Origin: Spironucleus salmonicida
Lineage: Eukaryota
Length of the DNA stretch: 64,000 nucleotides
Direction of reading: 5' to 3'
NCBI RefSeq assembly: GCF_000497125.1
Contig: NC_090599.1
Span: forward strand, 1,054,001 to 1,118,000
The notes beneath the pieces were generated by a model that worked only from the letters and a program-made list of their open reading frames with translations, had not been told where the DNA came from and did no database searches. Positions 31,819 through 57,478 of this stretch are shown here, piece by piece (within the stretch, counting starts at the first letter, position 1; the number at the start of each line of letters is the position of its first letter). Position numbers and translations under genes: made by a program.

Positions 31819-31960
31819 CTTTTTAAAATAAAAAGTTTATAAATTAATCGAAAAATTTTATTAATAAAAGACATAATATAATATTTCAGTTATAATAAGG
31901 TTAATTTGTCTGGATATAAGAAGGATTAAAACATATACAGAATTCGAAATTTCATCCACG

Positions 31961-32320
31961 TCGCAGCTGCAGTTCGAGTACGTGTACCGCCTGGAGCGCG
32001 GCTGCCAGGCGGGCGCCTACGTCCAGAAGACCCCGCCGCCACCGCGCCAGGAGGGCCGCGCGGACTTCTCCACCTACAAGCGGCGCTACGTGTTCGAGGT
32101 GCCGCCGGAGGTCCCGAAGCAACAGCTCCCGCGGTACGTGAACCTCTTCGCGCCCCGGCCCGAGACCGCTCCCGTCCCGCTGCGCCCTGCCTCGCCCCTC
32201 CGATCCCCGCTCTCGCCCGCACAGCGGCACCCCGCGGCCGTGTGCAAGAGCCGGCAGTTCCTGGCGTCCCGGCGCGCGGGCCTGAGCTCCCCGGTGCGGC
32301 TGCCCCCCGGTGCAGTCTGA
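31961..32320 (+). pseudogene. 3' half of the 52275-52931 gene
   Basis: No in-frame ATG between tRNA-Lys and the repeat start. Confidence 0.65.
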
Positions 32321-32528
32321 GCGGGCGGCTTCGCACGGCCCAGCCCGCCGCACGCCGCCACCTTCCACACTCCATGCGCGGAAGGGAGGAATGTGTCGGG
32401 CGGGGGCCCGTTGGCAGAGTACCAACTTTCCGAAAGAGGTCCGCTGCGCGAATACCCCCCGATATCGGCAGGCCCTTTCTACGGCTGGGGGACATCCCGC
32501 ATTCGGCCGAATACCCGCCGCGCCAGGA

Positions 32529-32918
32529 ATGAGCTAGTGGACCCCCGACGAGAAGACGGAGCTGGTGCGCCTCGTGTGCGATGCGCGCCTGGAGAGCGGC
32601 AGCGTGGACTGGGCGCGCCTCCAGGCCCGCTACCCGGGGCGGACCGTGCTGCAGGTCCAGCAGACCTACCAGAACATGACGCGGAAGGACAGCCTGGGCC
32701 GCACGTGCCGCGTGTGGAAGGCCAAGCACCTGCTGGCGGTGCAGGGGGCGTGCGTGGGCGGCCCCATCGACTGGCTGCGCCTGCGGCAGAGCCTGCCCGC
32801 CTTCGCCATGCAGGACATCATCGCCAAGGTGCGGCAGGTGCGGCGGGAGGGCTCCGACCCGGGGGAGCTGGGCCCGCCCCAGGAGCTGCTGCGGCTGCTG
32901 CGGCACGTGCTCGAGTGA
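32529..32918 (+). CDS. Two-repeat Myb-like protein, 129 aa
   Basis: MSQWTPDEKTELVRLV...VDWARLQARYPGRTVLQVQQTY, second repeat VWKAKH...IDWLRL; TAG=Gln at codon 3; ends GAGTGA. Confidence 0.8.
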
Positions 32919-32927
32919 ACGCCTCCC

Positions 32928-33740
32928 TCACTGGTCCACCTCCCCGAAGCGCCGCCACTGCACCACCAGGCTCGCGGCCTCCGTGCCGAACACGCCCCCG
33001 TGCGCGGCCACCAGCGCCTCCACGATGCGCTCCGCCCCCGACACGCCCAGCTGGTGCATGCCCCGGACCACCGCGGCCATGGGGATGCGGCGCTGGCCGA
33101 AGTAGGAGCGCCGGAGCAGCTGCAGGAAGCGCGCCCGCTGCTCCTCGCCGATGGAGCGCTCCGCGGCGCGCACGCCCTCCCGCGCCAGCTCCGCCCGCTC
33201 GAGGCGCTGCCGGTGCATGGACTGGGAGTGCTCGAGCCCGCTGTAGGTGTGCGTGTCCTGCTCGGCCTCCGCGGGCGCGATGAAGGGGTCGACGGCGTTG
33301 CGGAACACGGACCGCGCGTCGTGGAACGCCGCCAGGAAGGCCTCGAGCGCCGGCACGAAGCCCCCGGTGTCGTAGCGCCCGGGGTCCAGGCCGCGCTCCG
33401 CCAGCTGGGACCGCACGAAGTCCTGGATCGCGCGCTCGGTCTGGGCGACGAGCCCCTCGCGCTGCACGCCGAAGAAGACCTCGCGGAAGTACTTCAGGTG
33501 CTCCGGGGCGAGGTTGGAGCTGACGTTGAGGTTCCGGGCCGCGTTGCCGGCGTCCTCGCGGTAGGATCCCAGCCGCTCCAGCTCGGCGAGCGGCACCAGG
33601 TGGCGGCGGTAGTCGAAGGCGCGGGCGCGGGGGAACTTCTGCGCCACGACGTGGATCTGCTCCGCGCGCGTGAGGAACGCTGCGGCGTAGGCAGGGACGC
33701 GGGTCGCCCGGAACTGGATGCGGTCCAGAGTCTGGGCCAT
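32928..33740 (-). CDS. Hypothetical protein, 270 aa (GC-rich)
   Basis: MAQTLDRIQFRATRV...FGEVDQ*; near-saturated GC3; ends CAGTGA. Confidence 0.8.
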   Translation of the reverse strand: MAQTLDRIQFRATRVPAYAAAFLTRAEQIHVVAQKFPRARAFDYRRHLVPLAELERLGSYREDAGNAARNLNVSSNLAPEHLKYFREVFFGVQREGLVAQTERAIQDFVRSQLAERGLDPGRYDTGGFVPALEAFLAAFHDARSVFRNAVDPFIAPAEAEQDTHTYSGLEHSQSMHRQRLERAELAREGVRAAERSIGEEQRARFLQLLRRSYFGQRRIPMAAVVRGMHQLGVSGAERIVEALVAAHGGVFGTEAASLVVQWRRFGEVDQ

Positions 33741-33770
33741 TCGGAAGGGAGCAGAATGCAATGCGAAGGG

Positions 33771-34184
33771 TCACTCCACGCCGAACTCGGCCATGTCCAG
33801 CTCCTCGCCCTCGGCCAGGCTCACGCAGTACTCGCCCACCGCGTTGAAGCTGTCCAGCAGCTCCTCGTTCGCGCTGTGCTCCGCCCACCACAGGTGGCTC
33901 TCGCGCACGACGCCGTAGTAGGCCTGCACGCTCGCCTTGTCGGCCTTCGCCGCGAGCACGAGGCAGTCCAGCGCCGCGTTGGCGACCTCCTCGGACTTCG
34001 CGTCGCCCACGAACAGCCGCTCCAGCGCGGCCTCGTCCGGCTTCAGGGCCCGCGGCATGTCGCGGAACGCCAGGAAGGTGCACACCACCGGCAGGATCTC
34101 GCGGAAGGCGAAGCCGGCCTCGATCTGCAGGAAGCAGTTCTTCAGCCCCAGCACCGCCACCTCTGGCTCCGTGAACTGCAAAAC
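33771..34184 (-). pseudogene. 3' half of the 37643-38458 gene
   Basis: Homology stops at the IR3 edge; upstream sequence is unrelated AT-rich DNA. Confidence 0.7.
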
Positions 34185-35963: not shown

Positions 35964-37568
35964 TCATTTTTCATTCCCTTACACAAATCCCCTTCCTTCT
36001 TCCGCTTCCTTAATTTCCATTCTCCACTATTCGCTAACCCCTTCCTCATCAACTTTCCCTTCCTTTATTCGCTTTTTTACTTCCAATCCGCATGGCAAAA
36101 ACCGAATAATTTTTCCCAGGAAGTCTTTCAAGTTTCTGAGTGCCATGAAGCTGCAGACGCCGCGTGCGATTTCTTCGCCAATTTAACACATTTCGTGCAC
36201 GTGCCAGAAGCACTTTTTGCCCATCGTCTCGTAGCAGAAATAGTGCGTTTCCAGCGTGAACGAGAACGGAATTTTGCAAACTCGATGTGATATAACGCGC
36301 AGCGTACCGTCGAATCCCTCTCCTTTTTGATCGGTTTTTTCCATACTGCCATAAGAGAAATCGCATTTTGAGGTGTTGAAAAACGCGGAAGTTGTGATAG
36401 TTTTGCAGAAAAATAAGTTTAGAATCTGCTGGTTTGTGGGCGTTTGAAGTTCCAAATTTTGCTGTTTCGCGTCCGTCAGAATGTCATTTCCGAACAAAAC
36501 AGCGTTCAAAATGGACGCATGATTGTGGAAATCGATCAAAATGAGCGGTTTCTCGACGCTCAGCGTTCGGACGAGCGCCGTGTTCACAGGGAAGCGTTTT
36601 TCGTCGAATTGGTCGTACGAGCGGTTCAAATTCTGCGAAAGCGAGTCGCTGCGGTAGTTTCCGAGGTATACGCCGTCAGGATTCAGGCATGGAAAGAGCA
36701 GAATTTGGAAGTTGTCAAGAACCGGAATTTTAAAATTTACGGCCGAAATGACGATCGAATCGACTAAAAATGAAGACAAGGTCTCACCGGGGTGAACACG
36801 GCAGGAAAGCGCCAATTTGGGCGTATTTGGCTTAGAAATTATAGAGAATTTGAGGATTGGAAAGTTCAAAACTGTGCGGCCGATCTCTTGCTGAATTACG
36901 CGCAATTTGGCAGGAAATGAGCTTGAAAGGTACTTAATTCCGATGTATTTATAGTAAATGTGTGAAAGTGGATAAGGAGCGGAATATGAAATTTGAATCA
37001 GATTCTAGCTTGAAATCGCAAAAATTACCACTTTCTCATCATCATCGTCAACCGCTTAAATTGCTGAAGAGGCAATGCAAAATGGCACTTATTGATAGTC
37101 TGGGATTAGTTCATTTACTTCTATTAAGCGCTCATCCAAAATTTACAATTCTTCTATTATTTTATCGTGAATAGTCGGATACTTGTAAAAATCTCTACGG
37201 GTTTTTGTGGGGTTTAGATGTCTGAAAGTTGGTCTAAACAGGTTTTGAATAAGTCTGGTGGTTTTTGGCGGAGTTTTCCAGATGAAAATAAGGTTTTTGG
37301 TTGGTTGGTTTTCAGGAGTTTTTAAGCTGAGAAAGTCCACCAGATTTAAATCATTATCGTGTTGAATTTCCGATGGTCGCAAAAGAACGTTAAAATATGA
37401 CCTAAATGTTGATGTTCCATTATCTACATCGTTATAAAGGTTGAAATACACGTTCTCGTTGCTAGGGAGCTACTACAAAGCTTTTTCGGTAACAAATTTA
37501 GGTTTCTTTATTTACTCGATAGTTGCACAATTTCCAGAGTCGAACTTTGAAGTCCATGCCCAGTTCAT
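35964..37568 (-). CDS. Cytosolic carboxypeptidase (M14, CCP/AGBL tubulin deglutamylase family), 534 aa
   Basis: FDSGN, RVHPGE, LNPDGV..GNYR, NLNR, IDFHNH, FTLE. Confidence 0.9.
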
Positions 37569-37642
37569 TTTTAGCAAATTATATATATTTTCGTATTATT
37601 ATGTGTTAATTAAGAAATATATCCTCAACCCACTCCCCAAAA

Positions 37643-38458
37643 ATGTACGACTATAAAACGCTTTAAAACCTTATGGAAATTGCGCAAACTTCCCAAAATT
37701 TACTACCAGACCTTGACTATAAATCACTTATACACCTTTCCATAACAATTCCAAAAACAGATGACTAATTATTGTGTGCTGCCGAAGCAGTGAAACTCTT
37801 GGCAGTCCTTTCCCAGTACACGTCGCACTGCAATAGTTTAGCCAAGTAGTCGAATTTTGCCAAGTTTTTACCCTTCCTAATCAGCAGGTTTAAGGCCGCA
37901 AAGAACGAGTTTCGCGGAATCTTCAGAGCACTGTTGGTGAACTTTTCAGTCCACGACAACACGTGCAAGAAGCTATGCAAGCTGGAGTGGGTCACACCAG
38001 AAATGGCAATGAATTGCTCCAGGTTTGAGCCAGATGCGCGTAAGGTTTTGCAGTTCACGGAGCCAGAGGTGGCGGTGCTGGGGCTGAAGAACTGCTTCCT
38101 GCAGATCGAGGCCGGCTTCGCCTTCCGCGAGATCCTGCCGGTGGTGTGCACCTTCCTGGCGTTCCGCGACATGCCGCGGGCCCTGAAGCCGGACGAGGCC
38201 GCGCTGGAGCGGCTGTTCGTGGGCGACGCGAAGTCCGAGGAGGTCGCCAACGCGGCGCTGGACTGCCTCGTGCTCGCGGCGAAGGCCGACAAGGCGAGCG
38301 TGCAGGCCTACTACGGCGTCGTGCGCGAGAGCCACCTGTGGTGGGCGGAGCACAGCGCGAACGAGGAGCTGCTGGACAGCTTCAACGCGGTGGGCGAGTA
38401 CTGCGTGAGCCTGGCCGAGGGCGAGGAGCTGGACATGGCCGAGTTCGGCGTGGAGTGA
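37643..38458 (+). CDS. Hypothetical helical protein, 271 aa
   Basis: CCACTCCCCAAAA before ATG; open in code 6; ends GAGTGA. Confidence 0.8.
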
Positions 38459-38488
38459 CCCTTCGCATTGCATTCTGCTCCCTTCCGA

Positions 38489-39301
38489 ATGGCCCAGACT
38501 CTGGACCGCATCCAGTTCCGGGCGACCCGCGTCCCTGCCTACGCCGCAGCGTTCCTCACGCGCGCGGAGCAGATCCACGTCGTGGCGCAGAAGTTCCCCC
38601 GCGCCCGCGCCTTCGACTACCGCCGCCACCTGGTGCCGCTCGCCGAGCTGGAGCGGCTGGGATCCTACCGCGAGGACGCCGGCAACGCGGCCCGGAACCT
38701 CAACGTCAGCTCCAACCTCGCCCCGGAGCACCTGAAGTACTTCCGCGAGGTCTTCTTCGGCGTGCAGCGCGAGGGGCTCGTCGCCCAGACCGAGCGCGCG
38801 ATCCAGGACTTCGTGCGGTCCCAGCTGGCGGAGCGCGGCCTGGACCCCGGGCGCTACGACACCGGGGGCTTCGTGCCGGCGCTCGAGGCCTTCCTGGCGG
38901 CGTTCCACGACGCGCGGTCCGTGTTCCGCAACGCCGTCGACCCCTTCATCGCGCCCGCGGAGGCCGAGCAGGACACGCACACCTACAGCGGGCTCGAGCA
39001 CTCCCAGTCCATGCACCGGCAGCGCCTCGAGCGGGCGGAGCTGGCGCGGGAGGGCGTGCGCGCCGCGGAGCGCTCCATCGGCGAGGAGCAGCGGGCGCGC
39101 TTCCTGCAGCTGCTCCGGCGCTCCTACTTCGGCCAGCGCCGCATCCCCATGGCCGCGGTGGTCCGGGGCATGCACCAGCTGGGCGTGTCGGGGGCGGAGC
39201 GCATCGTGGAGGCGCTGGTGGCCGCGCACGGGGGCGTGTTCGGCACGGAGGCCGCGAGCCTGGTGGTGCAGTGGCGGCGCTTCGGGGAGGTGGACCAGTG
39301 A
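38489..39301 (+). CDS. Second copy of 270-aa hypothetical protein
   Basis: Same protein as 32928-33740. Confidence 0.8.
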   Translation: MAQTLDRIQFRATRVPAYAAAFLTRAEQIHVVAQKFPRARAFDYRRHLVPLAELERLGSYREDAGNAARNLNVSSNLAPEHLKYFREVFFGVQREGLVAQTERAIQDFVRSQLAERGLDPGRYDTGGFVPALEAFLAAFHDARSVFRNAVDPFIAPAEAEQDTHTYSGLEHSQSMHRQRLERAELAREGVRAAERSIGEEQRARFLQLLRRSYFGQRRIPMAAVVRGMHQLGVSGAERIVEALVAAHGGVFGTEAASLVVQWRRFGEVDQ

Positions 39302-39310
39302 GGGAGGCGT

Positions 39311-39517
39311 TCACTCGAGCACGTGCCGCAGCAGCCGCAGCAGCTCCTGGGGCGGGCCCAGCTCCCCCGGGTCGGAGCCCTCCCGCCGCACCTGCCGCAC
39401 CTTGGCGATGATGTCCTGCATGGCGAAGGCGGGCAGGCTCTGCCGCAGGCGCAGCCAGTCGATGGGGCCGCCCACGCACGCCCCCTGCACCGCTAGCAGG
39501 TGCTTGGCCTACCACAC
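39311..39517 (-). pseudogene. 3' fragment of two-repeat Myb gene
   Basis: Second repeat only; in-frame TGA immediately upstream. Confidence 0.7.
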
Positions 39518-39798
39518 TCAGGCATAGCGCTAGAAGCTAGAGCCTATTTCGAAGTATCGCAGCGATTGCCGGCTCCCGTTCGTTAAATAAGCTTGCTGAA
39601 TGTGAAATTATCAGCCCAGCCAATTTTGAATTTTGCATACCTTGCGCTCCAGACCTGCCCCTGCACATTCAGCGCCTACCACCCATCCACAATTTTTCAT
39701 TCTCACTCTGCCGCCACTTCCCCACCCAGTTCATCCTGCATCTTAAACCTCCTAGCTCATCACACACCAATAAACTTTACCAGATATACCATATATTA

Positions 39799-41520
39799 TC
39801 ACTTCGAGATTTTGCTCCAAATGCTGTCGTCGTCTACCTAAGGCTAGATATTCTCCTTTTTCACCTCCAAATCGCCCTAGATCGAACTCTACGCCTTCCG
39901 CTTCCTCGCGACCGCAAATGCTATAGCGCCACCAATGAGCCCTACAAGCAGAACCAACCCAGCAACGATCCCGGCTACTGACCCACCGCTCATTCTCTAT
40001 ACCTGCTGCGCGCAGAGACCGTCGACCATTTCGGCCCCGTCTTGGCATATCTAGCAAACGCTTTAATCTTAGCAGCTTTTGCAGTTCTGCCCGCAGCTTT
40101 CGCACATCCCTTTGCTACTGAAATATCCTTCAGCGCACTAAAGACATGTGCTGGAGTCTGTGCAAGTAGCGCAGCCTTTTTGGCAGCTTGTGCAGGTATT
40201 TCCTGTAGACTTAATTTCGCAAAATAACCCGGCACCGCACTACTTCGACTCTGTGCAAATTTGCTTAGTGCACGTTTACTCATGCAACCTGTACCCATCT
40301 ATGCAGGCGGTGCAGGACTTGATATCGGAGCAGGCGGAGCAGCCCTCAGCGCAGGTCTCGCACGTGCTTATCCAGGGGTAATACAAGCAGAATTTACCAC
40401 TTGGGCAGGGCTTGGCGCTGGAGCACTCGCGTGGCCCCTATTTTTGACAAATATCTTAATCCAGCGTATATCCAACGTCGCACCTCGTGCACTTTGTCGC
40501 ACTTTCGCAGGCCCAACACCCGTCGGAGCAGCTGGTGCATACGCCGTTTTTGTTGAAGTAGAAACCATAGCACTCGGTGCATTGCTTAGACGAAGCGCAG
40601 GTTTAGCAGTGTTCCGCGCAGGACGCGCACTTCCCGTCTTCTGCCACATAGGGTGCAGTGCATTTTATACAATTTCCGGAAATGTCAGCTTCGACGCAGT
40701 TTTTGGATAAGCTGACGCATTTGTTACCAGTAGGATCAATACCGCAGAATTTATTGTCAGTGCATTTATTCACGTTGTTGCATTCGTTCAATATGCATTT
40801 ACCGCTTTGAATGTCGTACCTCTCCTTGCAGAGGCGGCACATACTGTCGGTTTTGCAGTCCATGCAGTTATCACCGCACGAAACGCACATGCCGTTCTTC
40901 AAGAAGTTTCCGTCCTGGCAAGAGATGCAGGAGCCTTCGGCTGTGCATTTGCCGCAGTTACTAGGGCACGACGTGCAATTGCCGTCCTTTAATACAAATG
41001 AATATCTGCATGACGTACAAACTCCCTTATTGCAGGTCTTACAATTTGCTGGACAAGTATTACAAATCTTTCCGTCCAGTTCGAAGCCATCGGAGCAAGC
41101 AGAACAATTATTTGAGTTCGTACATTTAACGCAGCCGGTGCCGCATTTATAGCAGTTAGGGCCACCTTCAGTAAAAAATCCTGTGCGGCAAATATCGCAT
41201 TCATAGTGTTTGCTGCAGGAAATACAGTTATCTATGCACTTATAACAGTAACGTTCTGTAAGTTAATATCCTGAAAGGCAACTAGTGCATTCATAATTGT
41301 TATTACATGTTCGGCATCCGGCTTGGCAAAGCTTGCAAATCCTATCTTAAAGGAAATAGCCCTAATTGCAGGTAGTGCATTGAGATAGTGAATTTGGAAG
41401 ACAGTTGGCACAGTTATAAGTCTTGCAACGAATACACATTTTCTATTGACCACTTGGTGCATAATCTGGGCATACAGTACCGTTGGGGCATCTGTTGTCA
41501 TTGCAGATGTATGATGACAT
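39799..41520 (-). CDS. Cysteine-rich membrane protein (VSP/CRMP-like), 573 aa
   Basis: Dozens of CXXC motifs; TM SGGSVAGIVAGLVLLVGLIGGAIAFAV followed by RKRK; ends AAGTGA. Confidence 0.9.
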
Positions 41521-44514
41521 TTTATGAAGAAGTGGCAACGTGATATTATTATAACTTCAATATAACATAAGTATTTAGTTTCTAGCTGTTTCTTAGTTTC
41601 TGGAAAATGTAGTGTGACTTTATAAATACTAATAATCGATCCATTTAAATATTCTATAACGATAATTAGATAATTAGAAAACAAAATGCTCATTTATTAC
41701 TATAGAGTAGCAATATTTTAGTTTATAATGGGAAACTAATTTATTAGTTTAGACGCAGTGTAGAAGTATTTTTGTTGTCAGTTATAGAACTCAAAATATT
41801 TGCAAAATACAATATAAATATGTTATTTTTTCTAAGATATAAAAATTATATGTGATGAGGTTATTCAATTATATAACAAGATTATCATAAAGAGAATATA
41901 TAGTATGAATTATATATAAATACTAAACAAAATGGAATCTTTAAAATACATCAGCAATTCTAGGATCTACAAGGCCCTCGTGATAATTCAGGATATTATT
42001 TTGCTGCTACCAATACAAAGCATTTACCATATTCCCATAAGCCTAACATCACATCTCATGGTTATTCCTATAAAACAATTAATCGTCAACAATGAGGTTA
42101 TTTGCACTATTTTGTATCCTAATCATTAAGTTGAACTTACCAAAGTAATTTTCAGCTAATATATATTTAGTTATAGACCAAGAAATCATGTAGCTCTCTA
42201 GATTAAATATGTCATAACCGGCATGAAGGTTTCATATTATATTCTTATTGGCATTGTTTGACCAAAATATTAAACCTTGTTATTATATCTTCGCAGTTGC
42301 ATGACTAAACCGAGAAGCATTATTTTAGTATAATCGACACTTTATAAGTTTTAACAAGCAGCAGCTCTTATTTTAAGTACCTTTTACGAAATAATGTCAT
42401 TCATGATATTTTAAATCAGTAGTAGTTTTTCATTAGGATTAGTAGCCTAGCATCATCTATACTATCTAAAAATAAGGTATTATCGGTCTATGCTACCAAC
42501 CTGCCATACTCATACGATTTCCAGATAAGTTTTAACAATTTACATTTACTTGTGTAAAATGCACAAGTATGTATAACAAATTAATAACTTCGATATTCAT
42601 ATTGAACTTTTACCAACAGTCTCATCCCACATGAAGGCACTCTCATAGCGTCTTACTTAGCTCCGGACGACTCCAGGGCTTTCCAATTGTGCGAGCAGCT
42701 TTCCGGCCGACTAGCCAGAGCCCAGGTAGAGCTTGGGCAAAAATGGGTTAAAAAATGAAGTTTGTTAAGATCACCAATTTGTATTGATTTCAATGATCTG
42801 AATTCGGGGGAAAAATTATCTAAATATATATATATTAATATCACTCCATAAGTTTTCCCAAAATTAATGGATCGTTGTTGCAAAAAGGTCAAAACAAGAA
42901 AGTGCGCTTTTCATAACTCGTTTGTATAAATACCTAGATTTTTTTTCGATTCGTCCGGGTTCTATATTAACATATATCTATTTATATAGGAAAAAAACAG
43001 GGTCCCTTCCACAAATACTAAACAGCCAAATTCAAATCTTTTTTGGACCCAAATGCATCCTTCTATTTAATATATAATAGAGGTACTGTGGAAGGGAAAC
43101 CCGTTTTTCACTTTTTATTCAATAATACAAACACAACCTATTCAATATATATATATTATCATAGTAAAATTAAAAAAATCACTTTTTTGTGTAACACTTT
43201 TGGGCCCAGATAATATATTATAACAATGCAGAATCACTATAAGAAAAAAACTCCAAAAGGTTATGTTTAGGAAAGGAAAAACCTATACATCTACAGTTGG
43301 CTAAAAATCCGGAAGTTACCAAACCTATTATAATAGTAAATTATCTATAATCATAAAAATTAAGCGTTTTTTCTGGGCAAACTACATATTATTATATATT
43401 TATATACACTTATTCTAAAACGTTGATTCTAAAAATAGATCAGTTTTGTAGATTTCTAAATAGTTTTTAGCATCACCAAACACTATATTATTCATATATA
43501 ATGCTATTATTACGATTTTAAAAAAGGAATTGAAACTATCATTTAATATTGTAAATATATATTACTTCCTTTTTCTACGAAATTAGTTTTTGTATATAAT
43601 ATATATTTTGAGTGTTTTTATAACTTATTTAAATCATATAATATTTATATATTAAAATGCTGTTTAAAAACAGTTACCTAATATTTATTAATAATATTGT
43701 GATAAATTTACATTATTATTAAGCATATAATAGTATAAGTCTATTTTTATGACAAGAGACAAGAAACCAGCTACTGGTTTAAATTATTTATTATTATAAA
43801 TAGATAATATTTAATTGCCTTGATTTTACTTTTTATACACCACTCTAAATTGTATAGAATTTTTAGAAAGATAATATTGATATAAAATATATAATATTCA
43901 ATATAATATTAAATCAAAGAAATCATATATATAGTTTTTAAATATAATATATACATATATTAAAATATATAAAATCATTATAACAAATAAAATAATTTTC
44001 ATAAAATATATATTATATATATGTTAATAAATATATCTATAGATTTTTATATTTTAAAAAATATCGTAAGGGGGGTACTCATTGATTTTTTAATAAAAAT
44101 ATTTTTTGAAAAAATATTATCAAATTTTCTCAAGAACTGTAAGGTAAAATTAGAATAATTAAATTTATACTAAATATATGTTGATATATTATTATATTCA
44201 TTTTTATCCAAAAAACTGAATTCTATAAAAACGATATTTTTCATGAGTACTATATATGTTAATATACATAGTTTCTCAAATAATGAAAAGGAATTGTAAC
44301 AGAATTATATTAAATATATATTCATAAAATACTAAAAATTGAATAAAAATTGAGTATATTTAAAAAATAATGTTAATATATTCCTAGTATATTAACTTAT
44401 TTTGACGAAAAATCATAGAAAAAATAATATGATTTAAATAATCTATTTCAAATATTGATTTCTTTCCATTTGTGTATCTCACCATACAACTATTTAGCAT
44501 ATAAATAGTAGTAT

Positions 44515-45594
44515 ATGAAGTTTTCTCTTCCAAATTTGATGTTTTCACAATATTTCAGATTTTGCCGGACCCCCGACGAGAAGACGGAGCTGGTGCGCCT
44601 CGTGTGCGACGCGCGCCTGGAGAGCGGCAGCGTGGACTGGGCGCGCCTCCAGGCCCGCTACCAGGGGCGGACCGTGCTGCAGGTCCAGCAGACCTACCAG
44701 AACATGACGCGGAAGGACAGCCTGGGCCGCAGCGTTCCTCACGCGCGCGGAGCAGATCCACGTCGTGGCGCAGAAGTTCCCCCGCGCCCGCGCCTTCGAC
44801 TACCGCCGCCACCTGGTGCCGCTCGCCGAGCTGGAGCGGCTGGGATCCTACCGCGAGGACGCCGGCAACGCGGCCCGGAACCTCAACGTCAGCTCCAACC
44901 TCGCCCCGGAGCACCTGAAGTACTTCCGCGAGGTCTTCTTCGGCGTGCAGCGCGAGGGGCTCGTCGCCCAGACCGAGCGCGCGATCCAGGACTTCGTGCG
45001 GTCCCAGCTGGCGGAGCGCGGCCTGGACCCCGGGCGCTACGACACCGGGGGCTTCGTGCCGGCGCTCGAGGCCTTCCTGGCGGCGTTCCACGACGCGCGG
45101 TCCGTGTTCCGCAACGCCGTCGACCCCTTCATCGCGCCCGCGGAGGCCGAGCAGGACACGCACACCTACAGCGGGCTCGAGCACTCCCAGTCCATGCACC
45201 GGCAGCGCCTCGAGCGGGCGGAGCTGGCGCGGGAGGGCGTGCGCGCCGCGGAGCGCTCCATCGGCGAGGAGCAGCGGGCGCGCTTCCTGCAGCTGCTCCG
45301 GCGCTCCTACTTCGGCCAGCGCCGCATCCCCATGGCCGCGGTGGTCCGGGGCATGCACCAGCTGGGCGTGTCGGGGGCGGAGCGCATCGTGGAGGCGCTG
45401 GTGGCCGCGCACGGGGGCGTGTTCGGCACGGAGGCCGCGAGCCTGGTGGTGCAGTGGCGGCGCTTCGGGGAGGTGGACCAGTGAGGGAGGCGTTCACTCG
45501 AGCACGTGCCGCAGCAGCCGCAGCAGCTCCTGGGGCGGGCCCAGCTCCCCCGGGTCGGAGCCCTCCCGCCGCACCTGCCGCACCTTGGCGATGA
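44515..45594 (+). other. Chimeric ORF (AT-rich start + Myb repeat 1 + out-of-frame body of the 270-aa gene)
   Basis: 44567-44731 matches 32539-32703; junction microhomology GCCGCA. Confidence 0.6.
44726..45484 (+). pseudogene. 5'-truncated copy of the 270-aa gene
   Basis: Lacks the first 18 codons including ATG. Confidence 0.7.
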
Positions 45595-45700
45595 TGTCCT
45601 GCATGGCGAAGGCGGGCAGGCTCTGCCGCAGGCGCAGCCAGTCGATGGGGCCGCCCACGCACGCCCCCTGCACCGCTAGCAGGTGCTTGGCCTACCACAC
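45494..45700 (-). pseudogene. 3' fragment of two-repeat Myb gene
   Basis: Copy of 39311-39517. Confidence 0.7.
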
Positions 45701-45981
45701 TCAGGCATAGCGCTAGAAGCTAGAGCCTATTTCGAAGTATCGCAGCGATTGCCGGCTCCCGTTCGTTAAATAAGCTTGCTGAATGTGAAATTATCAGCCC
45801 AGCCAATTTTGAATTTTGCATACCTTGCGCTCCAGACCTGCCCCTGCACATTCAGCGCCTACCACCCATCCACAATTTTTCATTCTCACTCTGCCGCCAC
45901 TTCCCCACCCAGTTCATCCTGCATCTTAAACCTCCTAGCTCATCACACACCAATAAACTTTACCAGATATACCATATATTA

Positions 45982-47703
45982 TCACTTCGAGATTTTGCTC
46001 CAAATGCTGTCGTCGTCTACCTAAGGCTAGATATTCTCCTTTTTCACCTCCAAATCGCCCTAGATCGAACTCTACGCCTTCCGCTTCCTCGCGACCGCAA
46101 ATGCTATAGCGCCACCAATGAGCCCTACAAGCAGAACCAACCCAGCAACGATCCCGGCTACTGACCCACCGCTCATTCTCTATACCTGCTGCGCGCAGAG
46201 ACCGTCGACCATTTCGGCCCCGTCTTGGCATATCTAGCAAACGCTTTAATCTTAGCAGCTTTTGCAGTTCTGCCCGCAGCTTTCGCACATCCCTTTGCTA
46301 CTGAAATATCCTTCAGCGCACTAAAGACATGTGCTGGAGTCTGTGCAAGTAGCGCAGCCTTTTTGGCAGCTTGTGCAGGTATTTCCTGTAGACTTAATTT
46401 CGCAAAATAACCCGGCACCGCACTACTTCGACTCTGTGCAAATTTGCTTAGTGCACGTTTACTCATGCAACCTGTACCCATCTATGCAGGCGGTGCAGGA
46501 CTTGATATCGGAGCAGGCGGAGCAGCCCTCAGCGCAGGTCTCGCACGTGCTTATCCAGGGGTAATACAAGCAGAATTTACCACTTGGGCAGGGCTTGGCG
46601 CTGGAGCACTCGCGTGGCCCCTATTTTTGACAAATATCTTAATCCAGCGTATATCCAACGTCGCACCTCGTGCACTTTGTCGCACTTTCGCAGGCCCAAC
46701 ACCCGTCGGAGCAGCTGGTGCATACGCCGTTTTTGTTGAAGTAGAAACCATAGCACTCGGTGCATTGCTTAGACGAAGCGCAGGTTTAGCAGTGTTCCGC
46801 GCAGGACGCGCACTTCCCGTCTTCTGCCACATAGGGTGCAGTGCATTTTATACAATTTCCGGAAATGTCAGCTTCGACGCAGTTTTTGGATAAGCTGACG
46901 CATTTGTTACCAGTAGGATCAATACCGCAGAATTTATTGTCAGTGCATTTATTCACGTTGTTGCATTCGTTCAATATGCATTTACCGCTTTGAATGTCGT
47001 ACCTCTCCTTGCAGAGGCGGCACATACTGTCGGTTTTGCAGTCCATGCAGTTATCACCGCACGAAACGCACATGCCGTTCTTCAAGAAGTTTCCGTCCTG
47101 GCAAGAGATGCAGGAGCCTTCGGCTGTGCATTTGCCGCAGTTACTAGGGCACGACGTGCAATTGCCGTCCTTTAATACAAATGAATATCTGCATGACGTA
47201 CAAACTCCCTTATTGCAGGTCTTACAATTTGCTGGACAAGTATTACAAATCTTTCCGTCCAGTTCGAAGCCATCGGAGCAAGCAGAACAATTATTTGAGT
47301 TCGTACATTTAACGCAGCCGGTGCCGCATTTATAGCAGTTAGGGCCACCTTCAGTAAAAAATCCTGTGCGGCAAATATCGCATTCATAGTGTTTGCTGCA
47401 GGAAATACAGTTATCTATGCACTTATAACAGTAACGTTCTGTAAGTTAATATCCTGAAAGGCAACTAGTGCATTCATAATTGTTATTACATGTTCGGCAT
47501 CCGGCTTGGCAAAGCTTGCAAATCCTATCTTAAAGGAAATAGCCCTAATTGCAGGTAGTGCATTGAGATAGTGAATTTGGAAGACAGTTGGCACAGTTAT
47601 AAGTCTTGCAACGAATACACATTTTCTATTGACCACTTGGTGCATAATCTGGGCATACAGTACCGTTGGGGCATCTGTTGTCATTGCAGATGTATGATGA
47701 CAT
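45982..47703 (-). CDS. Second copy of cysteine-rich membrane protein
   Basis: Copy of 39799-41520 at offset 6183. Confidence 0.9.
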
Positions 47704-50697
47704 TTTATGAAGAAGTGGCAACGTGATATTATTATAACTTCAATATAACATAAGTATTTAGTTTCTAGCTGTTTCTTAGTTTCTGGAAAATGTAGTGTGA
47801 CTTTATAAATACTAATAATCGATCCATTTAAATATTCTATAACGATAATTAGATAATTAGAAAACAAAATGCTCATTTATTACTATAGAGTAGCAATATT
47901 TTAGTTTATAATGGGAAACTAATTTATTAGTTTAGACGCAGTGTAGAAGTATTTTTGTTGTCAGTTATAGAACTCAAAATATTTGCAAAATACAATATAA
48001 ATATGTTATTTTTTCTAAGATATAAAAATTATATGTGATGAGGTTATTCAATTATATAACAAGATTATCATAAAGAGAATATATAGTATGAATTATATAT
48101 AAATACTAAACAAAATGGAATCTTTAAAATACATCAGCAATTCTAGGATCTACAAGGCCCTCGTGATAATTCAGGATATTATTTTGCTGCTACCAATACA
48201 AAGCATTTACCATATTCCCATAAGCCTAACATCACATCTCATGGTTATTCCTATAAAACAATTAATCGTCAACAATGAGGTTATTTGCACTATTTTGTAT
48301 CCTAATCATTAAGTTGAACTTACCAAAGTAATTTTCAGCTAATATATATTTAGTTATAGACCAAGAAATCATGTAGCTCTCTAGATTAAATATGTCATAA
48401 CCGGCATGAAGGTTTCATATTATATTCTTATTGGCATTGTTTGACCAAAATATTAAACCTTGTTATTATATCTTCGCAGTTGCATGACTAAACCGAGAAG
48501 CATTATTTTAGTATAATCGACACTTTATAAGTTTTAACAAGCAGCAGCTCTTATTTTAAGTACCTTTTACGAAATAATGTCATTCATGATATTTTAAATC
48601 AGTAGTAGTTTTTCATTAGGATTAGTAGCCTAGCATCATCTATACTATCTAAAAATAAGGTATTATCGGTCTATGCTACCAACCTGCCATACTCATACGA
48701 TTTCCAGATAAGTTTTAACAATTTACATTTACTTGTGTAAAATGCACAAGTATGTATAACAAATTAATAACTTCGATATTCATATTGAACTTTTACCAAC
48801 AGTCTCATCCCACATGAAGGCACTCTCATAGCGTCTTACTTAGCTCCGGACGACTCCAGGGCTTTCCAATTGTGCGAGCAGCTTTCCGGCCGACTAGCCA
48901 GAGCCCAGGTAGAGCTTGGGCAAAAATGGGTTAAAAAATGAAGTTTGTTAAGATCACCAATTTGTATTGATTTCAATGATCTGAATTCGGGGGAAAAATT
49001 ATCTAAATATATATATATTAATATCACTCCATAAGTTTTCCCAAAATTAATGGATCGTTGTTGCAAAAAGGTCAAAACAAGAAAGTGCGCTTTTCATAAC
49101 TCGTTTGTATAAATACCTAGATTTTTTTTCGATTCGTCCGGGTTCTATATTAACATATATCTATTTATATAGGAAAAAAACAGGGTCCCTTCCACAAATA
49201 CTAAACAGCCAAATTCAAATCTTTTTTGGACCCAAATGCATCCTTCTATTTAATATATAATAGAGGTACTGTGGAAGGGAAACCCGTTTTTCACTTTTTA
49301 TTCAATAATACAAACACAACCTATTCAATATATATATATTATCATAGTAAAATTAAAAAAATCACTTTTTTGTGTAACACTTTTGGGCCCAGATAATATA
49401 TTATAACAATGCAGAATCACTATAAGAAAAAAACTCCAAAAGGTTATGTTTAGGAAAGGAAAAACCTATACATCTACAGTTGGCTAAAAATCCGGAAGTT
49501 ACCAAACCTATTATAATAGTAAATTATCTATAATCATAAAAATTAAGCGTTTTTTCTGGGCAAACTACATATTATTATATATTTATATACACTTATTCTA
49601 AAACGTTGATTCTAAAAATAGATCAGTTTTGTAGATTTCTAAATAGTTTTTAGCATCACCAAACACTATATTATTCATATATAATGCTATTATTACGATT
49701 TTAAAAAAGGAATTGAAACTATCATTTAATATTGTAAATATATATTACTTCCTTTTTCTACGAAATTAGTTTTTGTATATAATATATATTTTGAGTGTTT
49801 TTATAACTTATTTAAATCATATAATATTTATATATTAAAATGCTGTTTAAAAACAGTTACCTAATATTTATTAATAATATTGTGATAAATTTACATTATT
49901 ATTAAGCATATAATAGTATAAGTCTATTTTTATGACAAGAGACAAGAAACCAGCTACTGGTTTAAATTATTTATTATTATAAATAGATAATATTTAATTG
50001 CCTTGATTTTACTTTTTATACACCACTCTAAATTGTATAGAATTTTTAGAAAGATAATATTGATATAAAATATATAATATTCAATATAATATTAAATCAA
50101 AGAAATCATATATATAGTTTTTAAATATAATATATACATATATTAAAATATATAAAATCATTATAACAAATAAAATAATTTTCATAAAATATATATTATA
50201 TATATGTTAATAAATATATCTATAGATTTTTATATTTTAAAAAATATCGTAAGGGGGGTACTCATTGATTTTTTAATAAAAATATTTTTTGAAAAAATAT
50301 TATCAAATTTTCTCAAGAACTGTAAGGTAAAATTAGAATAATTAAATTTATACTAAATATATGTTGATATATTATTATATTCATTTTTATCCAAAAAACT
50401 GAATTCTATAAAAACGATATTTTTCATGAGTACTATATATGTTAATATACATAGTTTCTCAAATAATGAAAAGGAATTGTAACAGAATTATATTAAATAT
50501 ATATTCATAAAATACTAAAAATTGAATAAAAATTGAGTATATTTAAAAAATAATGTTAATATATTCCTAGTATATTAACTTATTTTGACGAAAAATCATA
50601 GAAAAAATAATATGATTTAAATAATCTATTTCAAATATTGATTTCTTTCCATTTGTGTATCTCACCATACAACTATTTAGCATATAAATAGTAGTAT

Positions 50698-51777
50698 ATG
50701 AAGTTTTCTCTTCCAAATTTGATGTTTTCACAATATTTCAGATTTTGCCGGACCCCCGACGAGAAGACGGAGCTGGTGCGCCTCGTGTGCGACGCGCGCC
50801 TGGAGAGCGGCAGCGTGGACTGGGCGCGCCTCCAGGCCCGCTACCAGGGGCGGACCGTGCTGCAGGTCCAGCAGACCTACCAGAACATGACGCGGAAGGA
50901 CAGCCTGGGCCGCAGCGTTCCTCACGCGCGCGGAGCAGATCCACGTCGTGGCGCAGAAGTTCCCCCGCGCCCGCGCCTTCGACTACCGCCGCCACCTGGT
51001 GCCGCTCGCCGAGCTGGAGCGGCTGGGATCCTACCGCGAGGACGCCGGCAACGCGGCCCGGAACCTCAACGTCAGCTCCAACCTCGCCCCGGAGCACCTG
51101 AAGTACTTCCGCGAGGTCTTCTTCGGCGTGCAGCGCGAGGGGCTCGTCGCCCAGACCGAGCGCGCGATCCAGGACTTCGTGCGGTCCCAGCTGGCGGAGC
51201 GCGGCCTGGACCCCGGGCGCTACGACACCGGGGGCTTCGTGCCGGCGCTCGAGGCCTTCCTGGCGGCGTTCCACGACGCGCGGTCCGTGTTCCGCAACGC
51301 CGTCGACCCCTTCATCGCGCCCGCGGAGGCCGAGCAGGACACGCACACCTACAGCGGGCTCGAGCACTCCCAGTCCATGCACCGGCAGCGCCTCGAGCGG
51401 GCGGAGCTGGCGCGGGAGGGCGTGCGCGCCGCGGAGCGCTCCATCGGCGAGGAGCAGCGGGCGCGCTTCCTGCAGCTGCTCCGGCGCTCCTACTTCGGCC
51501 AGCGCCGCATCCCCATGGCCGCGGTGGTCCGGGGCATGCACCAGCTGGGCGTGTCGGGGGCGGAGCGCATCGTGGAGGCGCTGGTGGCCGCGCACGGGGG
51601 CGTGTTCGGCACGGAGGCCGCGAGCCTGGTGGTGCAGTGGCGGCGCTTCGGGGAGGTGGACCAGTGAGGGAGGCGTTCACTCGAGCACGTGCCGCAGCAG
51701 CCGCAGCAGCTCCTGGGGCGGGCCCAGCTCCCCCGGGTCGGAGCCCTCCCGCCGCACCTGCCGCACCTTGGCGATGA
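50698..51777 (+). other. Second copy of chimeric ORF
   Basis: Same translation as 44515-45594. Confidence 0.6.
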
Positions 51778-52634
51778 TGTCCTGCATGGCGAAGGCGGGC
51801 AGGCTCTGCCGCAGGCGCAGCCAGTCGATGGGGCCGCCCACGCACGCCCCCTGCACCGCCAGCAGGTGCTTGGCCTTCCACACGCGGCACGTGCGGCCCA
51901 GGCTGTCCTTCCGCGTCATGTTCTGGTAGGTCTGCTGGACCTGCAGCACGGTCCGCCCCGGGTAGCGGGCCTGGAGGCGCGCCCAGTCCACGCTGCCGCT
52001 CTCCAGGCGCGCATCGCACACGAGGCGCACCAGCTCCGTCTTCTCGTCGGGGGTCCACTAGCTCATTCCTGGCGCGGCGGGTATTCGGCCGAATGCGGGA
52101 TGTCCCCCAGCCGTAGAAAGGGCCTGCCGATATCGGGGGGTATTCGCGCAGCGGACCTCTTTCGGAAAGTTGGTACTCTGCCAACGGGCCCCCGCCCGAC
52201 ACATTCCTCCCTTCCGCGCATGGAGTGTGGAAGGTGGCGGCGTGCGGCGGGCTGGGCCGTGCGAAGCCGCCCGCTCAGACTGCACCGGGGGGCAGCCGCA
52301 CCGGGGAGCTCAGGCCCGCGCGCCGGGACGCCAGGAACTGCCGGCTCTTGCACACGGCCGCGGGGTGCCGCCGTGGGGGCGAGAGCGGGGATCGGAGGGG
52401 CGAGGCAGGGCGCAGCGGGACGGGAGCGGTCTCGGGCCGGGACGCGAAGAGGTTCACGTACCGCGGGAGCTGCTGCTTCGGGACCTCCGGCGGCACCTCG
52501 AACACGTAGCGCCGCTTGTAGGTGGAGAAGTCCGCGCGGCCCTCCTGGCGCGGTGGCGGCGGGGTCTTCTGGACGTAGGCGCCCGCCTGGCAGCCGCGCT
52601 CCAGCCGGTACACGTACTCGAACTGCAGCTGCGA
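50909..52634. repeat. Inverted repeat IR4 right arm
   Basis: Reverse complement of 31961-33686. Confidence 0.9.
51677..52066 (-). CDS. Two-repeat Myb-like protein (copy 2)
   Basis: Inverted copy of 32529-32918. Confidence 0.8.
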
Positions 52635-52931
52635 TGTTGGTTATGTCTTTTATTCTTTAGGCTAAACATTTTATTGCTTCTATTTGTTAATGCAACATAA
52701 CACTACATCATGCGCTAACTCGTATATAAGAGGTCTAACTACTGTTATAGCATGGTTGTAATTATTTGTAGCTTATTGTGATTATAATTTTATTTCATTA
52801 TCAATAACCTACAACAACATAATTAATTCTGATCTAGAAGTTATCATCATACTATTATTGGTTTTGTTGAAGCATTTTTATTATGTCGAGATCAATGATG
52901 CAAACTTGGGTTAAGAAAAAAATCTATTCAT
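52275..52931 (-). CDS. Hypothetical protein, 218 aa (AT-rich 5' half, GC-rich 3' half)
   Basis: Continuous code-6 frame MNRFFSQPKF...QKTQPTSQLQFEYVYRLERG...LPPGAV*. Confidence 0.7.
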
Positions 52932-53456
52932 TTTTATTTTTAATATATTAGTGTATAATAATTTTATTACGTTATTGGAAAATATATATTGCTGTTGAAT
53001 AAAACGAATCTACTGTAAATAAGGGTTAAAATATTATAACTCCATATAATGACTAAATATGTATTCTCTGATTTTAAATTTTTAGTAAATTAACAGTATA
53101 AAATGTAACTTATCAAATATTATATAAGCTACTATTACTAATAATATAAAAAATACAAATAAAAACTAATTAAATACCATAACTACTTTAGTTTATCCAA
53201 TATTTAGTAGTAGAGGAAATATAGCATTATTATATACATAAATTAATATGAGCAACCTATTCTCGTAATTTGGTTTTAAAATAAATTATCCCTCCATATT
53301 ACTAACCAAAAAATTACAAATAGATATACTATACACTAGCACCATATTGTACAAACGAGCAATTATAACAGTAACCGACCCTCCACCCACTTAAAATGAA
53401 ATTATTTGCAATATATTATTATAAATATTTTTCTCGCTCCACCACCCGCTTCTAAA

Positions 53457-54788
53457 ATGAAGCAGAACAAAAACTATCGTTTTACGAAAATTAACAGGAA
53501 ATCGGTAACAAAAACGACCGCCCCCGATGCGCGTTTTGCTTATGAAGAACCTGCAGCGATCCAAGAATCCCCAGAACCATCGCAGCTTGAACCATTGCCA
53601 GAAGAGCAGGCACCGCCGGAATAGGCCTACACAGACTCCAGCTCTTGTTTTTTAGCCATATTAAACGCCAATTGGGATGCGTTTACCGCGAGTGACGCTC
53701 TTGTGCTGGCAAACTCGTTTGTCCCCCAGAATGCGAAGGTCGAGAACGCTACGGTATACTATAGCGCCTACGGCACTCGCCAAATGGAGCTAGAACGCGA
53801 ACGCGGCCCATAGTTGGACGTCGAGGGCGCGCTTCTACGGCTCGCAAAAAGCGATCCAATCCTGCACGCGAGATTATCGAAGGCCGGCCTAGAAAACTGC
53901 AAAGCGCTGCTAGAATCCGACGCACAGCTGTAGCAGAAGGCTGCGGAGGCCGCCGTGCACCGCTACGAGCTCTAAAAGCTCAGATACTGCTTCTGCGTGC
54001 TCGAGTTCAGCACTCCAAATGCGTGCAGTGCGTGCTTCGCAGCACTACACAACGCAGAAATCGGTGCGGACGGATGTGTGCTCGAGTGCCAAATCGTACA
54101 CGAGGAGGATATGACCACCGTGCGCGCCATGACGGTGCGCGACTCAAGCGCAGCAGTCCCTACGAGCTACCGGTTTGCAGGTGGAGCCGAAGCCGGCTTC
54201 GGGAAGGCCCGTCCGGTGCTCACTTGGGAGGTCGATGCGCGGCGCGAAAAAGTGCTTAGGAAAAAGGTCAGTTCGAAGGAGCTAGATGAAATGGAGGAAC
54301 GAGGTGTTTTCGACGATTTTTTGAATTGCGATGGCGCCGAGGAAATTTGGGAAGGGGAGGAACAAGAAGAAGTGGAAAGTGAAAATGAAAGTGAAAAAAA
54401 TCAGTCTGCACAAAACGAAATTGAGCAGAAAATGAAAGTGCTGATGCAAAATAAGACGACAGAGCAGACACCGTTTTAGAAATTTTTGCAGGAGAAAGGA
54501 AGGGCCACAAAGCAGGAGCGCGGTGACGTGAATTTGTAGTTCCGGCGCCAGGGGGCGGAAGTGTTGATTCAGGACGTTAAAATTGACACCAGGAAGCAGA
54601 AGCAGTTCAGGAGGCTGAAGCGGGCCGTCGAGGACGCGCAAGACGTGAAGGCGAGAGATTTCGCGGTTAAGCAGTTTTAAAAGTTTTCTAGGGATAATCC
54701 TGACGTCGACGGGGCCGAGAAACCGGCTATTCAGGCCGATTTGGATGACGACAGATTTGATTTTCAGGGCAAAGATGACGAGAAGTGA
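53457..54788 (+). CDS. ESF1: Pre-rRNA processing protein ESF1, 443 aa
   Basis: DARF, AILNANWD..TASD..VLANSFVP, RYELQKLRYCFCVLEF, LTWE, acidic tail. Confidence 0.85.
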
Positions 54789-54903
54789 AGGTATTTTTTG
54801 GTTATTAGAGTATAATAATGTGCTGTACGGTAAATTTGCTTAAATAAATCAACAAAAAATAACATATTATTATATAGTATAAGGAAGATTGAGTAATTAA
54901 TAA

Positions 54904-56286
54904 ATGCTTGCTGTTTTAGCATTACCTGTTTATTCATAGTTTATCGCAAACATCACTTATAGTATCCCATATGCAAATAATACATAGTATGCTACTGTTT
55001 ACTAGGGCAGCTAATCTTAGCGTTATTAGTGGTATAATGATGACAAAATTATTGATATCAATGTTATTTACTCTGATTCTTACAAGTATTTAAGAACAGA
55101 GAATGACAAGTAGTCCTGCTATTATTATAAAGGAGGTGAAAAGGTTGATTTCGTACCTATGCCTAGTAGTAACTGGAAAGATCTAGGTAAGATTAGTCTT
55201 ATGGGAATGTAGGTAAACCATTTCCAGCTTGTAGGATTCGACAATGAAAGACGGTTCGAATAAAATTTTTACACAAAAACTGATGAAATGAAAACACCTA
55301 TTCGCTGGGAAATGTATTCTATTTCAAATTTCCATTCTCATTATGATATTTATATAATCGAATATAATACTTTTGATTTAGTTGCTCCACTTGATAACAT
55401 CTTCGATATCCCTGAAGTAATTAACGGTGTATAAATTTCACGTGCATGCGATCTTAAGCCATAAGATGAAAGTACACCTGCTGGGCCTACTTATTTCAAT
55501 AACTTTAAAATTTAACCAAAGATTGCATCCAGAAAATCAGCTAATCATAGAAATGATTTTTACGAAGTTTCTGAAAATTTGCCTAAAACTCTTGATTGGA
55601 GAGTTTCTGGTGTAGTTGGGTCTATTTAAGATTAAGTTTTCTGCGGATCATGCTGGGCATTTTCAGCTACTGCTACTTTAGAGTCCAGAATAAATGTATA
55701 ATTATTGAAAACTAAATAGGCCGACAAACCTTTTATTACAGTTTCCCCTTAGTAAGTAGTTGACTGCTATTGGAACTTTACTGGTGATATCCTAACATAA
55801 TCTACTGGTTGTGAAGGTGGTGATGAAAATGCAGTACTAGCTTTTTGGGCTTAAAAGAAATAAATGTTCATTACAGAAGAGAAAAACTACCCATACATAG
55901 GATAAAACGATTTTTGCAAAGAAAACGAGAGTAATATGTCTGTTAATATAATTGAATATAAGACTGTACCAGCTAATGATGTTTAAGCATTAAAAACTGC
56001 TTTATTAAACGGGCCAGTTTCAGTAGGTATCAGTGTTACCAAATCCCTTTTGTCATACTAAGGTGGTGTATATAGAGACGAAAATTGTTCCTCTAATCCA
56101 GAAGATATCTCTCATGCTGTTAATGTAGTTGGATGGGGAGTTTCTGAAATTTTCGAAGAATATTGGATTGTGAGAAATAGCTGGAGTCCTAGATGGGGAG
56201 ATAATGGCTACATTTATATCGCAATTGCTGGTAATATCTGTAGTGTTATGAGCATTGCGGCATACGTTGATATCTCATTGAATTGA
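54904..56286 (+). CDS. Papain-family (C1A) cysteine protease with 26/29-kDa-proteinase-like N-terminal domain, 460 aa
   Basis: LPKTLDWR, QDQVFCGSCWAF, GCEGG, SHAV.VVGWG, WIVRNSW; N-terminal PIRWEM....HSHYDIY. Confidence 0.93.
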
Positions 56287-56761: not shown

Positions 56762-57478
56762 TCAGAATGTACTACCTATTGAATGTCTACCACTAAGTGT
56801 ATAAGATGGTGCTTACTTTTAATTTATTTTTGTTTCAATATTATATTAACCAACACCAGGACTTTTGACCTTCTTTTACCTTTTATTTAATCCATCTTTC
56901 GCAAATGGTCCAGTACCACGTTTGTGCAATGTGTCTAGTTGATATGTAAAAGCACCAGGACCAGGCACAATATTTTACATTTTTGTGGTTTAAAACACTT
57001 ACTTCTATGAAAATTTCATAGAATATCCAGGAGCTCTATTACTGATTGATCGAACCGCTTCTTATGTTGAGTATTAGCTTGGTCCTGGTGAAGGTTATTT
57101 TTTAGGTTCTATATACCTTCCAGAAATTGTTGATCCGGTACGTGATAATGATGAATACTCAGTATTATAACTACCAGGACCAACTTTAATTGAATTTTTA
57201 GCTATCTCGTCAAAAATAGATCCAGATGTTTTAGGTCGCACAGAATATGCAGCTGCTGATTTAGTGATCAAAGAAGATGCTGATTATGTGTTATAACTAG
57301 ATGGTCCAGGTCCAATTGCTGATTTTAGCTCTCTCGCTCTGAATGACATTACCGAACCACTTGATGATAAGGATGATCTATTAGTCTCATATGCACCTGG
57401 GCCAGGTGCTCTGAATTACACATTATCAAACATAGTTCCGGTTTTTGATAGTGACGATGGTGTTAAGCGTGCTGACAT
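56762..57478 (-). CDS. SHIPPO-repeat (ODF3/STPG-like) axonemal protein, 238 aa
   Basis: Repeated PGPGAY, GPGPSSY, GPGSY, PGPSQY, PGPGAF, PGVGQY. Confidence 0.85.

Follow-up and report, generated by a model that had tools for sequence, protein, structure and literature searches.

A composition step at a repeat edge within one reading frame

How does a single reading frame come to pass from AT-rich to GC-rich codons at the edge of a repeat? The question is raised by an orphan ORF, here called gene X, in a 64,000-nucleotide stretch of Spironucleus salmonicida DNA (contig C4, 1054001-1118000; the window, to which bare coordinates refer).

52275..52931 (-), gene X, orphan ORF of 218 aa, code 6 (table 6)
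52638..52931 (-), 5' half of X, codons 1-98, AT-rich, single-copy, GC 0.27, GC4 0.19
52275..52637 (-), 3' half of X, codons 99-218, GC-rich, duplicated, GC 0.74, GC3 0.93, without Met

The earlier note on this DNA had described a GC switch at a repeat boundary inside this ORF, and the counts bear it out: third positions are G or C in 28 of the 98 codons upstream of the repeat edge and in 112 of the 120 past it (Fisher p = 7e-25). GC at the three codon positions is 0.26/0.28/0.29 in codons 1-98 and 0.73/0.57/0.93 in codons 99-218. The repeat edge lies at 52637 (blastn) or 52634 (megablast), and the best GC3 change point makes 52634 the first GC-rich codon, as had been proposed; the step thus matches the edge to within one codon. 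Glutamine usage changes with it, from 8 TAA and 3 TAG (vs 2 CAA) in the AT-rich half, where many such codons had been noted, to 8 CAG in the GC-rich half. Searched against the genome, the GC half matches at 2 places and the AT half at 1. A shift toward Pro, Arg and Ala, which the note had also placed at the junction, is present but falls mainly in the last 55 codons (P+R+A fraction 0.11 in codons 1-98, 0.29 in 99-163 and 0.51 in 164-218). By count, the stop context of X, TCTGA, is uninformative (4/42 GC-rich genes); the commonest context is AGTGA (22/42 GC-rich genes, 25/64 AT-rich genes). Thus, the GC step within X is real and coincides with the edge of an inverted duplication.

The repeat is an inverted duplication that cuts two genes

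The duplicated DNA and the genes that it holds are listed here.

31958..34184, left arm, 2227 bp, cut inside X (31958) and inside Z (34184)
51890..52637, no strand, right arm, outer piece (blastn/megablast)
38045..39524, no strand, right arm, inner piece (megablast)
39525..51889, no strand, insertion in the right arm, two tandem 6183-bp units, 12.4 kb
31958..32320 (+), second X copy, 5'-truncated, with 6 differences to the right-arm copy
51677..52066 (-), arm gene of 129 aa with GC3 0.99, Myb-like (PF00249 at E 1.7e-4, short of the curated Pfam threshold)
38489..39301 (+), gene Y, also within the arm, 270 aa, GC3 0.99, without a Pfam match
37556..38458 (+), gene Z, full-length copy, crosses the inner edge 38045

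The partner of the repeat is 31958-33692, inverted and 99.5% identical. Rejoined, the two right-arm pieces measure 2228 bp and align end to end with the 2227-bp left arm; the arms differ at 6 places in the outer 266 bp and at 4 more near the rejoined point. The left arm, flanked by AT-rich DNA (GC 0.21 and 0.19), contains the 3' half of X, the Myb-like gene, gene Y (mirror copy 32928-33740(-)) and the 3' half of Z. Its truncated X copy is separated by 138 bp of AT-rich DNA from an upstream tRNA-Lys gene (31747-31819), and the frame of this copy also stays open for 152 codons upstream.

Gene Z indicates which arm came first. In the right copy, the 163-codon 5' part outside the arm belongs to a frame that is open for 200 codons (LLR +24.6), and GC3 is graded (0.42, 0.65, then 0.99), while the left copy meets a stop 38 codons outside the arm (LLR -1.7); none of 2278 candidates is a Z homolog. 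Since the right locus keeps the 5' part of this cut gene and the left one stops, the right arm is likely the donor and the left arm the copy, which would hold two 5'-truncated stumps. The simplest history is a single inverted duplication from the right locus, with one breakpoint inside Z and the other inside X; 52638-52931 would then be the native 5' part of X.

Each 6183-bp unit of the insertion, with an interior GC of 0.34, carries AT-rich DNA, a VSP-like gene rich in cysteine and another duplicate of part of the arm. The two copies of the cysteine-rich membrane protein gene (39799-41520 and 45982-47703 (-); 573 aa) match PF03302, the VSP family of Giardia (E 1e-10), which together with genes that read in table 6 marks the DNA as that of a hexamitid diplomonad; the genetic code and the base composition agree with S. 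salmonicida as published. At 44515-44731 and 50698-50914, an AT-rich ATG is followed in frame by 165 bp from the 5' part of the Myb-like gene, lying in opposite orientation, and this piece then runs into gene Y out of frame; these in-frame AT-to-GC junctions are plainly products of rearrangement. We also considered a gene switch by inversion between the arms and set it aside by reasoning, as the spacer would flip and leave the 5' junction of X unchanged.

The same layout recurs at other inverted repeats

We examined 864 kb of the genome, made up of the 64-kb window and 80 further stretches. GC is 0.33-0.35 in unique DNA, 0.52-0.56 in inverted repeats and 0.39-0.54 in other duplicates. Several near-identical repeats are still AT-rich (GC 0.23-0.39; one, of 3444 bp and 99.97% identity, has GC 0.35), which indicates that time is needed and that duplication alone is insufficient.

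Seven other inverted pairs could be counted, namely those whose two arms yielded the same GC-coded frame, edges with no frame or with differing frames being left out. In six of the seven, a coding frame continues outside the arm in exactly one copy (LLR +18.6 to +35.5 vs -1.3 to -24.2); the seventh has a Met just inside the arm. Over the first 30 codons outside the arm, GC3 is graded in four donors (0.63-0.90) and abrupt in two (0.30, 0.33), the value for X being 0.33. An initial impression of graded inner and abrupt outer arm edges (3 and 2 cases) is contradicted by independent stretches, by the abrupt inner donor edge at C1 753784 and by the graded outer edges at C1 711392 and C3 607244.

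One of the two abrupt donors serves as a control. A tubulin-tyrosine-ligase-like (TTL) gene at that C1 edge 753784 (sample stretch L061:3214-4845 (-)) encodes a PF03133 domain at aa 118-410 (E 5e-53) that spans the inverted-repeat edge at aa 355, where GC3 passes from 0.30 to 0.90. The domain is intact across this sharp step, and thus such a step needs no fusion. GC3 is also raised in the 5' third of the TTL gene, with no partner among the sampled stretches. The TTL gene is a better test case than X, as X has no homolog. We conclude that the pattern is recurrent and genome-wide, partly in print already, and that X is one of its weaker examples compared with genes that carry conserved domains.

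Two more loci have a similar appearance. A second palindrome with the same donor-and-stump layout lies at 24719-25987 (-) (edge 25225, stump from 27785), and its GC3 rises gradually from 0.2 to 0.8 before the arm and is at least 0.9 inside. At L016:6023-8179 (-), a 719-aa protein kinase with a weak EF-hand match has its last 83 codons in an inverted arm, and its GC3 goes from about 0.3 to 0.95 at the edge.

RNA-like contigs bridge the junction

The earlier note had proposed a search for transcripts across 52634. Contigs were available from four runs of one study; 'RNA' is a guess at their kind, no run being recorded as RNA, and they carry no strand. In all four runs a contig bridges 52637 (52373-52788, 52318-52741, 52555-52819 and 52421-52732), at depth 5-9 and with at least 95 bases on the AT side. 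These contigs have no joint or loose end at 52637 and an identity of 99% or 95-99%, and the contigs of the four runs have no joint at the X junction that skips sequence in the way a spliceosomal intron would. The unbroken bridging argues against both an assembly artefact and an intron. A divergently oriented neighbour served as RNA control.

53457..54788 (+), divergent neighbour with ESF1 RRM domain, PF25121, E 6e-20

Contigs on this gene reach no more than 12 bases beyond its ORF and in one run end in poly(A); intergenic stretches lack contig coverage in the same runs, as expected of RNA. Thus, on the RNA-like contigs of this one study, X is transcribed across the junction, the opposite of the outcome that the earlier note had named as refuting. 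No contig of the four runs covers 52820-53467, a gap that at depth 5-9 cannot place the start of X.

At 52372-52635 the contigs differ by run: left-copy alleles at 52442 and 52473 are present in runs X2 and X3 and absent from X1 and X4. In run X2 the left-copy alleles stand on a contig that also holds the right-copy junction. Either the stump is transcribed and some contigs are mosaic, or a converted allele is segregating.

Is the AT-rich half a native 5' end?

Since the GC half contains no Met, any X protein must start in the AT half, where in-frame ATGs lie at 52931, 52850, 52847 and 52820; the start is probably 52931 (the best A-rich context) or within 52820-52850. The absence of a frame break, as the earlier note had it, holds insofar as the ORF is open under table 6, but this is weak evidence: code 6 has one stop codon and 706 of 2910 non-coding 98-codon windows (24%) are open as well, and so an open frame means little.

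We scored coding potential with a periodic Markov model trained on AT-rich genes, after 7 of 43 long ORFs were dropped as spurious by eye. Codons 1-98 score ambiguously, with an LLR of -1.5 or -2.3 (density ratio 0.7-0.9); 7% of 313 coding windows do no better, and 11% of 672 open non-coding windows do at least as well. Their GC1 of 0.26 is below that of 97% of the 313 coding windows and of all 16 N-terminal controls, the usual GC1>GC3 asymmetry is missing, and the half ranks at the bottom among the 16 motif-defined N-termini from other contigs. Over 90 codons it reaches +0.9, far below the six other donors. Codons 38-98 (52638-52820, from ATG 52820) are coding-like, with a density ratio of 5-6 and a score that 3.5% of 2052 open non-coding windows reach, in a window picked after the data had been seen; codons 1-37 (52821-52931) are not clearly coding. 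The X frame is the best of six over the AT half, and none of the 7 minus-strand TGAs in 52638-52931 falls in frame (chance about 0.06).

Two other frames were rejected. The plus-strand frame 52093-52998 shares the same GC3 positions, but has an antisense pattern and a lower score over the AT half. In a longer ORF from 53345 the codons upstream of 52931 score as non-coding, and since 52932-53456 contains only 1 minus-strand TGA in any frame, the openness of that ORF is compositional.

Homolog searches returned X itself or nothing: 1 of 172 candidates in a near-length search (X itself), 0 of 928 in a longer-length search, itself only by phmmer against 1.84 billion representatives, no Pfam family, and no usable feature match in the Atlas (all TM under 0.5), where the model of X has a pLDDT of 0.45 and no alignment. 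The genome holds no X paralog beyond the arm partner.

These results leave room for a chance fusion, in which the true 5' end of X would have been lost from both copies by later rearrangement and the AT half would be captured intergenic or unrelated DNA, open by chance and supplying an ATG; conversion would still account for the high GC of the arm, but the step would be a breakpoint. The frequency of open non-coding windows of this size and the missing GC1>GC3 asymmetry suit such a history, as does the fact that truncated partners typically show abrupt edges. The region has, moreover, been rearranged again, as seen from the 12.4-kb insertion and from the broken Myb pieces, which carry in-frame AT-to-GC junctions at 44567 and 50750. 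A fusion would, however, be an extra event that the donor geometry does not require, and the coding-like codons 38-98, the best score of six frames and the 0/7 in-frame TGAs speak against it; two of the six other donors are equally abrupt, and the junction is present in the RNA-like contigs. We therefore regard a fusion as rather unlikely, though to be taken seriously, and of the two origins of the AT half, a native 5' end is clearly the better supported by these observations and captured DNA the weaker.

Probable GC-biased conversion between the arms

We thus favour, with some reserve, the reading that X is a native orphan gene whose GC half was recoded by long GC-biased conversion between the arms. 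The earlier note had offered conversion confined to the duplicated part as its first option, and this fits best with the donor geometry, the RNA-like contigs and the TTL control; the bias itself we infer. Judging by the geometry, a 2.23-kb segment running from mid-Z through Y and the Myb-like gene to mid-X would have been duplicated in inverted orientation 3.9 kb away, so that the donor locus kept both cut genes whole and the new arm received two 5'-truncated stumps. Recurrent non-allelic gene conversion would then have kept the arms about 99.6% identical, while heteroduplex repair favouring G/C may have driven third positions to 0.9-1.0 up to the last paired base and, by the same bias, shifted residues toward those with GC-rich codons. 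The unpaired 5' part of X would have stayed at the AT-rich background. The step would be the fossil edge of a conversion domain in one native, weakly expressed gene, rather than a designed switch.

Arms that are near-identical and yet differ in composition from the unpaired part of the same gene point to long homogenisation. GC of non-coding DNA is 0.69 in the arm vs 0.23 outside, and the density of arm differences is higher less than 300 bp from an arm end (87/16716 vs 210/73983, OR 1.8), as expected if conversion tracts need flanking homology. Variants were scored in repeats of at least three copies and called isolated if there was none other within 25 bp. Among isolated single-copy variants in GC-rich repeats, 40 are A/T among G/C and 14 the reverse (p 0.0005); in AT-rich repeats the counts are 8:3, the same ratio (not significant), and thus the A/T skew does not single out conversion bias. 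Before clustered variants were dropped, the counts were 76:36 in GC-rich, 34:21 in mid and 16:10 in AT-rich repeats. Local GC-ward mutation at equilibrium predicts symmetry and biased fixation predicts an A/T skew, but decay of an old GC-rich state would give the same skew.

The arms might also owe their GC to another cause, be it local GC-ward mutation or repair at paired or hairpin DNA, codon selection, or GC-richness before the duplication. GC4 is 0.87-1.00 in arm genes and far above in-arm non-coding GC (0.69 in one spacer of 208 bp), a gap that conversion bias alone would produce only if the spacer were under constraint. GC3 is graded outside several arms and in single-copy genes, low Nc' accompanies high GC3 in genes for which neither mutation nor selection is an easy explanation in the available text of PMC1805757, and, in that of PMC8981503, less than 20% of the GC excess in primate palindromes is due to conversion. 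Neither gene-level selection nor prior composition predicts a step inside single genes at the repeat edge, though, the variant skew to A/T (40:14) departs from the symmetry expected of local GC-ward mutation at equilibrium, and near-identical repeats that are still AT-rich mean that duplication by itself is not enough. Such causes seem to us distinctly unlikely.

Replacement of the 3' end of X in frame by a GC-rich paralog, the second option of the earlier note, suits a switch that is sharp and in frame, and finds no support: only two copies exist, the other being the truncated arm partner, with neither the 5' half nor a Met in the shared part, and the shared tract runs on for 1.9 kb through three other genes, which means a segmental duplication and not a gene-end swap. 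We hold this very improbable. An assembly artefact at the repeat edge, conceivable in a repeat-rich region with a recent tandem duplication, is hardly credible given the independent contigs of all four runs that cross the junction.

Against the conversion reading, raised GC3 is also seen in genes without a duplicate in the sampled stretches. The ESF1 neighbour (53457-54788) has a GC3 of 0.60, and in a 1795-aa gene at 57615-63002 GC3 climbs from about 0.2 to 0.7, its 3' part being at 0.6-0.8. Possibly these genes are former repeat arms or have partners elsewhere.

A bolder proposal is that in this diplomonad homology itself triggers a nearly complete correction in favour of G/C that rewrites any long-lived duplicate to its last paired base and changes protein composition. 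We consider this a long shot. If true, it would account for the high-GC3 genes of Spironucleus that still lack an explanation, and stump copies could remodel half of a working gene. Such a correction would be roughly the mirror image of fungal repeat-induced point mutation.

Relation to published systems

Sharp GC shifts in Spironucleus, from about 30% to about 70%, have been described, with the statement that neither mutation nor selection explains them easily (PMC1805757). Fourteen genes have GC3s over 75%, with lower values in their S. barkhanus orthologs (PMC2874811), and duplicated regions have 44.7% GC vs 30.7% (PMC9509377). The last study invokes gene conversion for surface-protein expansion, in its available text without a G/C bias, and A-rich starts and 107 Myb-domain proteins are on record (PMC3916229). 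The GC-rich islands and duplicated regions of S. salmonicida are like our case in their sharp shifts and in a GC3 near 1 in a minority of genes; unlike it, no intragenic step at a repeat edge is described in the available parts of the three papers (PMC1805757, PMC2874811, PMC9509377), and the 2007 paper leaves the cause open. A literature search by terms, titles and abstract starts found no publication joining biased gene conversion to Spironucleus.

In the parts of PMC8981503 available, primate palindromes are the closest mechanism, with a far smaller effect. They too have inverted arms over 99% identical, GC above that of the flanks and spacers of mixed history, and their GC excess is about 5 points, polarised by outgroups. 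In the X arms the unpolarised excess amounts to about 45 points, or 65 if third positions are taken alone, and the arms are 2 kb long with an edge that cuts genes. In rDNA, histone clusters and segmental duplications, homogenised copies become GC-rich. The X locus differs from these in that one copy is a truncated stump, which restricts the change to a portion of a working gene. PMC8981503 cites those three settings for concerted evolution with GC enrichment.

The very high GC3 of some Spironucleus genes is left unexplained by PMC1805757 and PMC2874811, as far as their available text goes. Genes cut by a repeat edge provide a within-gene control, from which expression, function and gene origin are removed as explanations, and thus make the question testable. 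It would be a mistake to take GC steps of this kind for lateral transfer, fusion or misassembly.

Other features of the window and genome

Three further genes with Pfam matches lie in the window.

54745-56286 (+), papain-family cysteine protease
56762-57583 (-), SHIPPO-repeat protein
31257-31643 (+), ribosomal protein L26

The window also contains eight tRNA genes, three for Glu (11070-11143, 19204-19277, 21161-21234), two for Leu (18754-18838, 21600-21684) and three for Lys (23938-24010, 29000-29072, 31747-31819). Several of the eight lie inside or adjoin repeat arms, one tRNA-Lys being 138 bp from the left-arm breakpoint. On contig C4, about 948200-949850 (L035), a short tandem repeat composed almost wholly of A/T extends for about 1.6 kb between gene-poor stretches, and an 850-bp AT-rich piece near it recurs in the window at 43224-44072 and 49407-50255.
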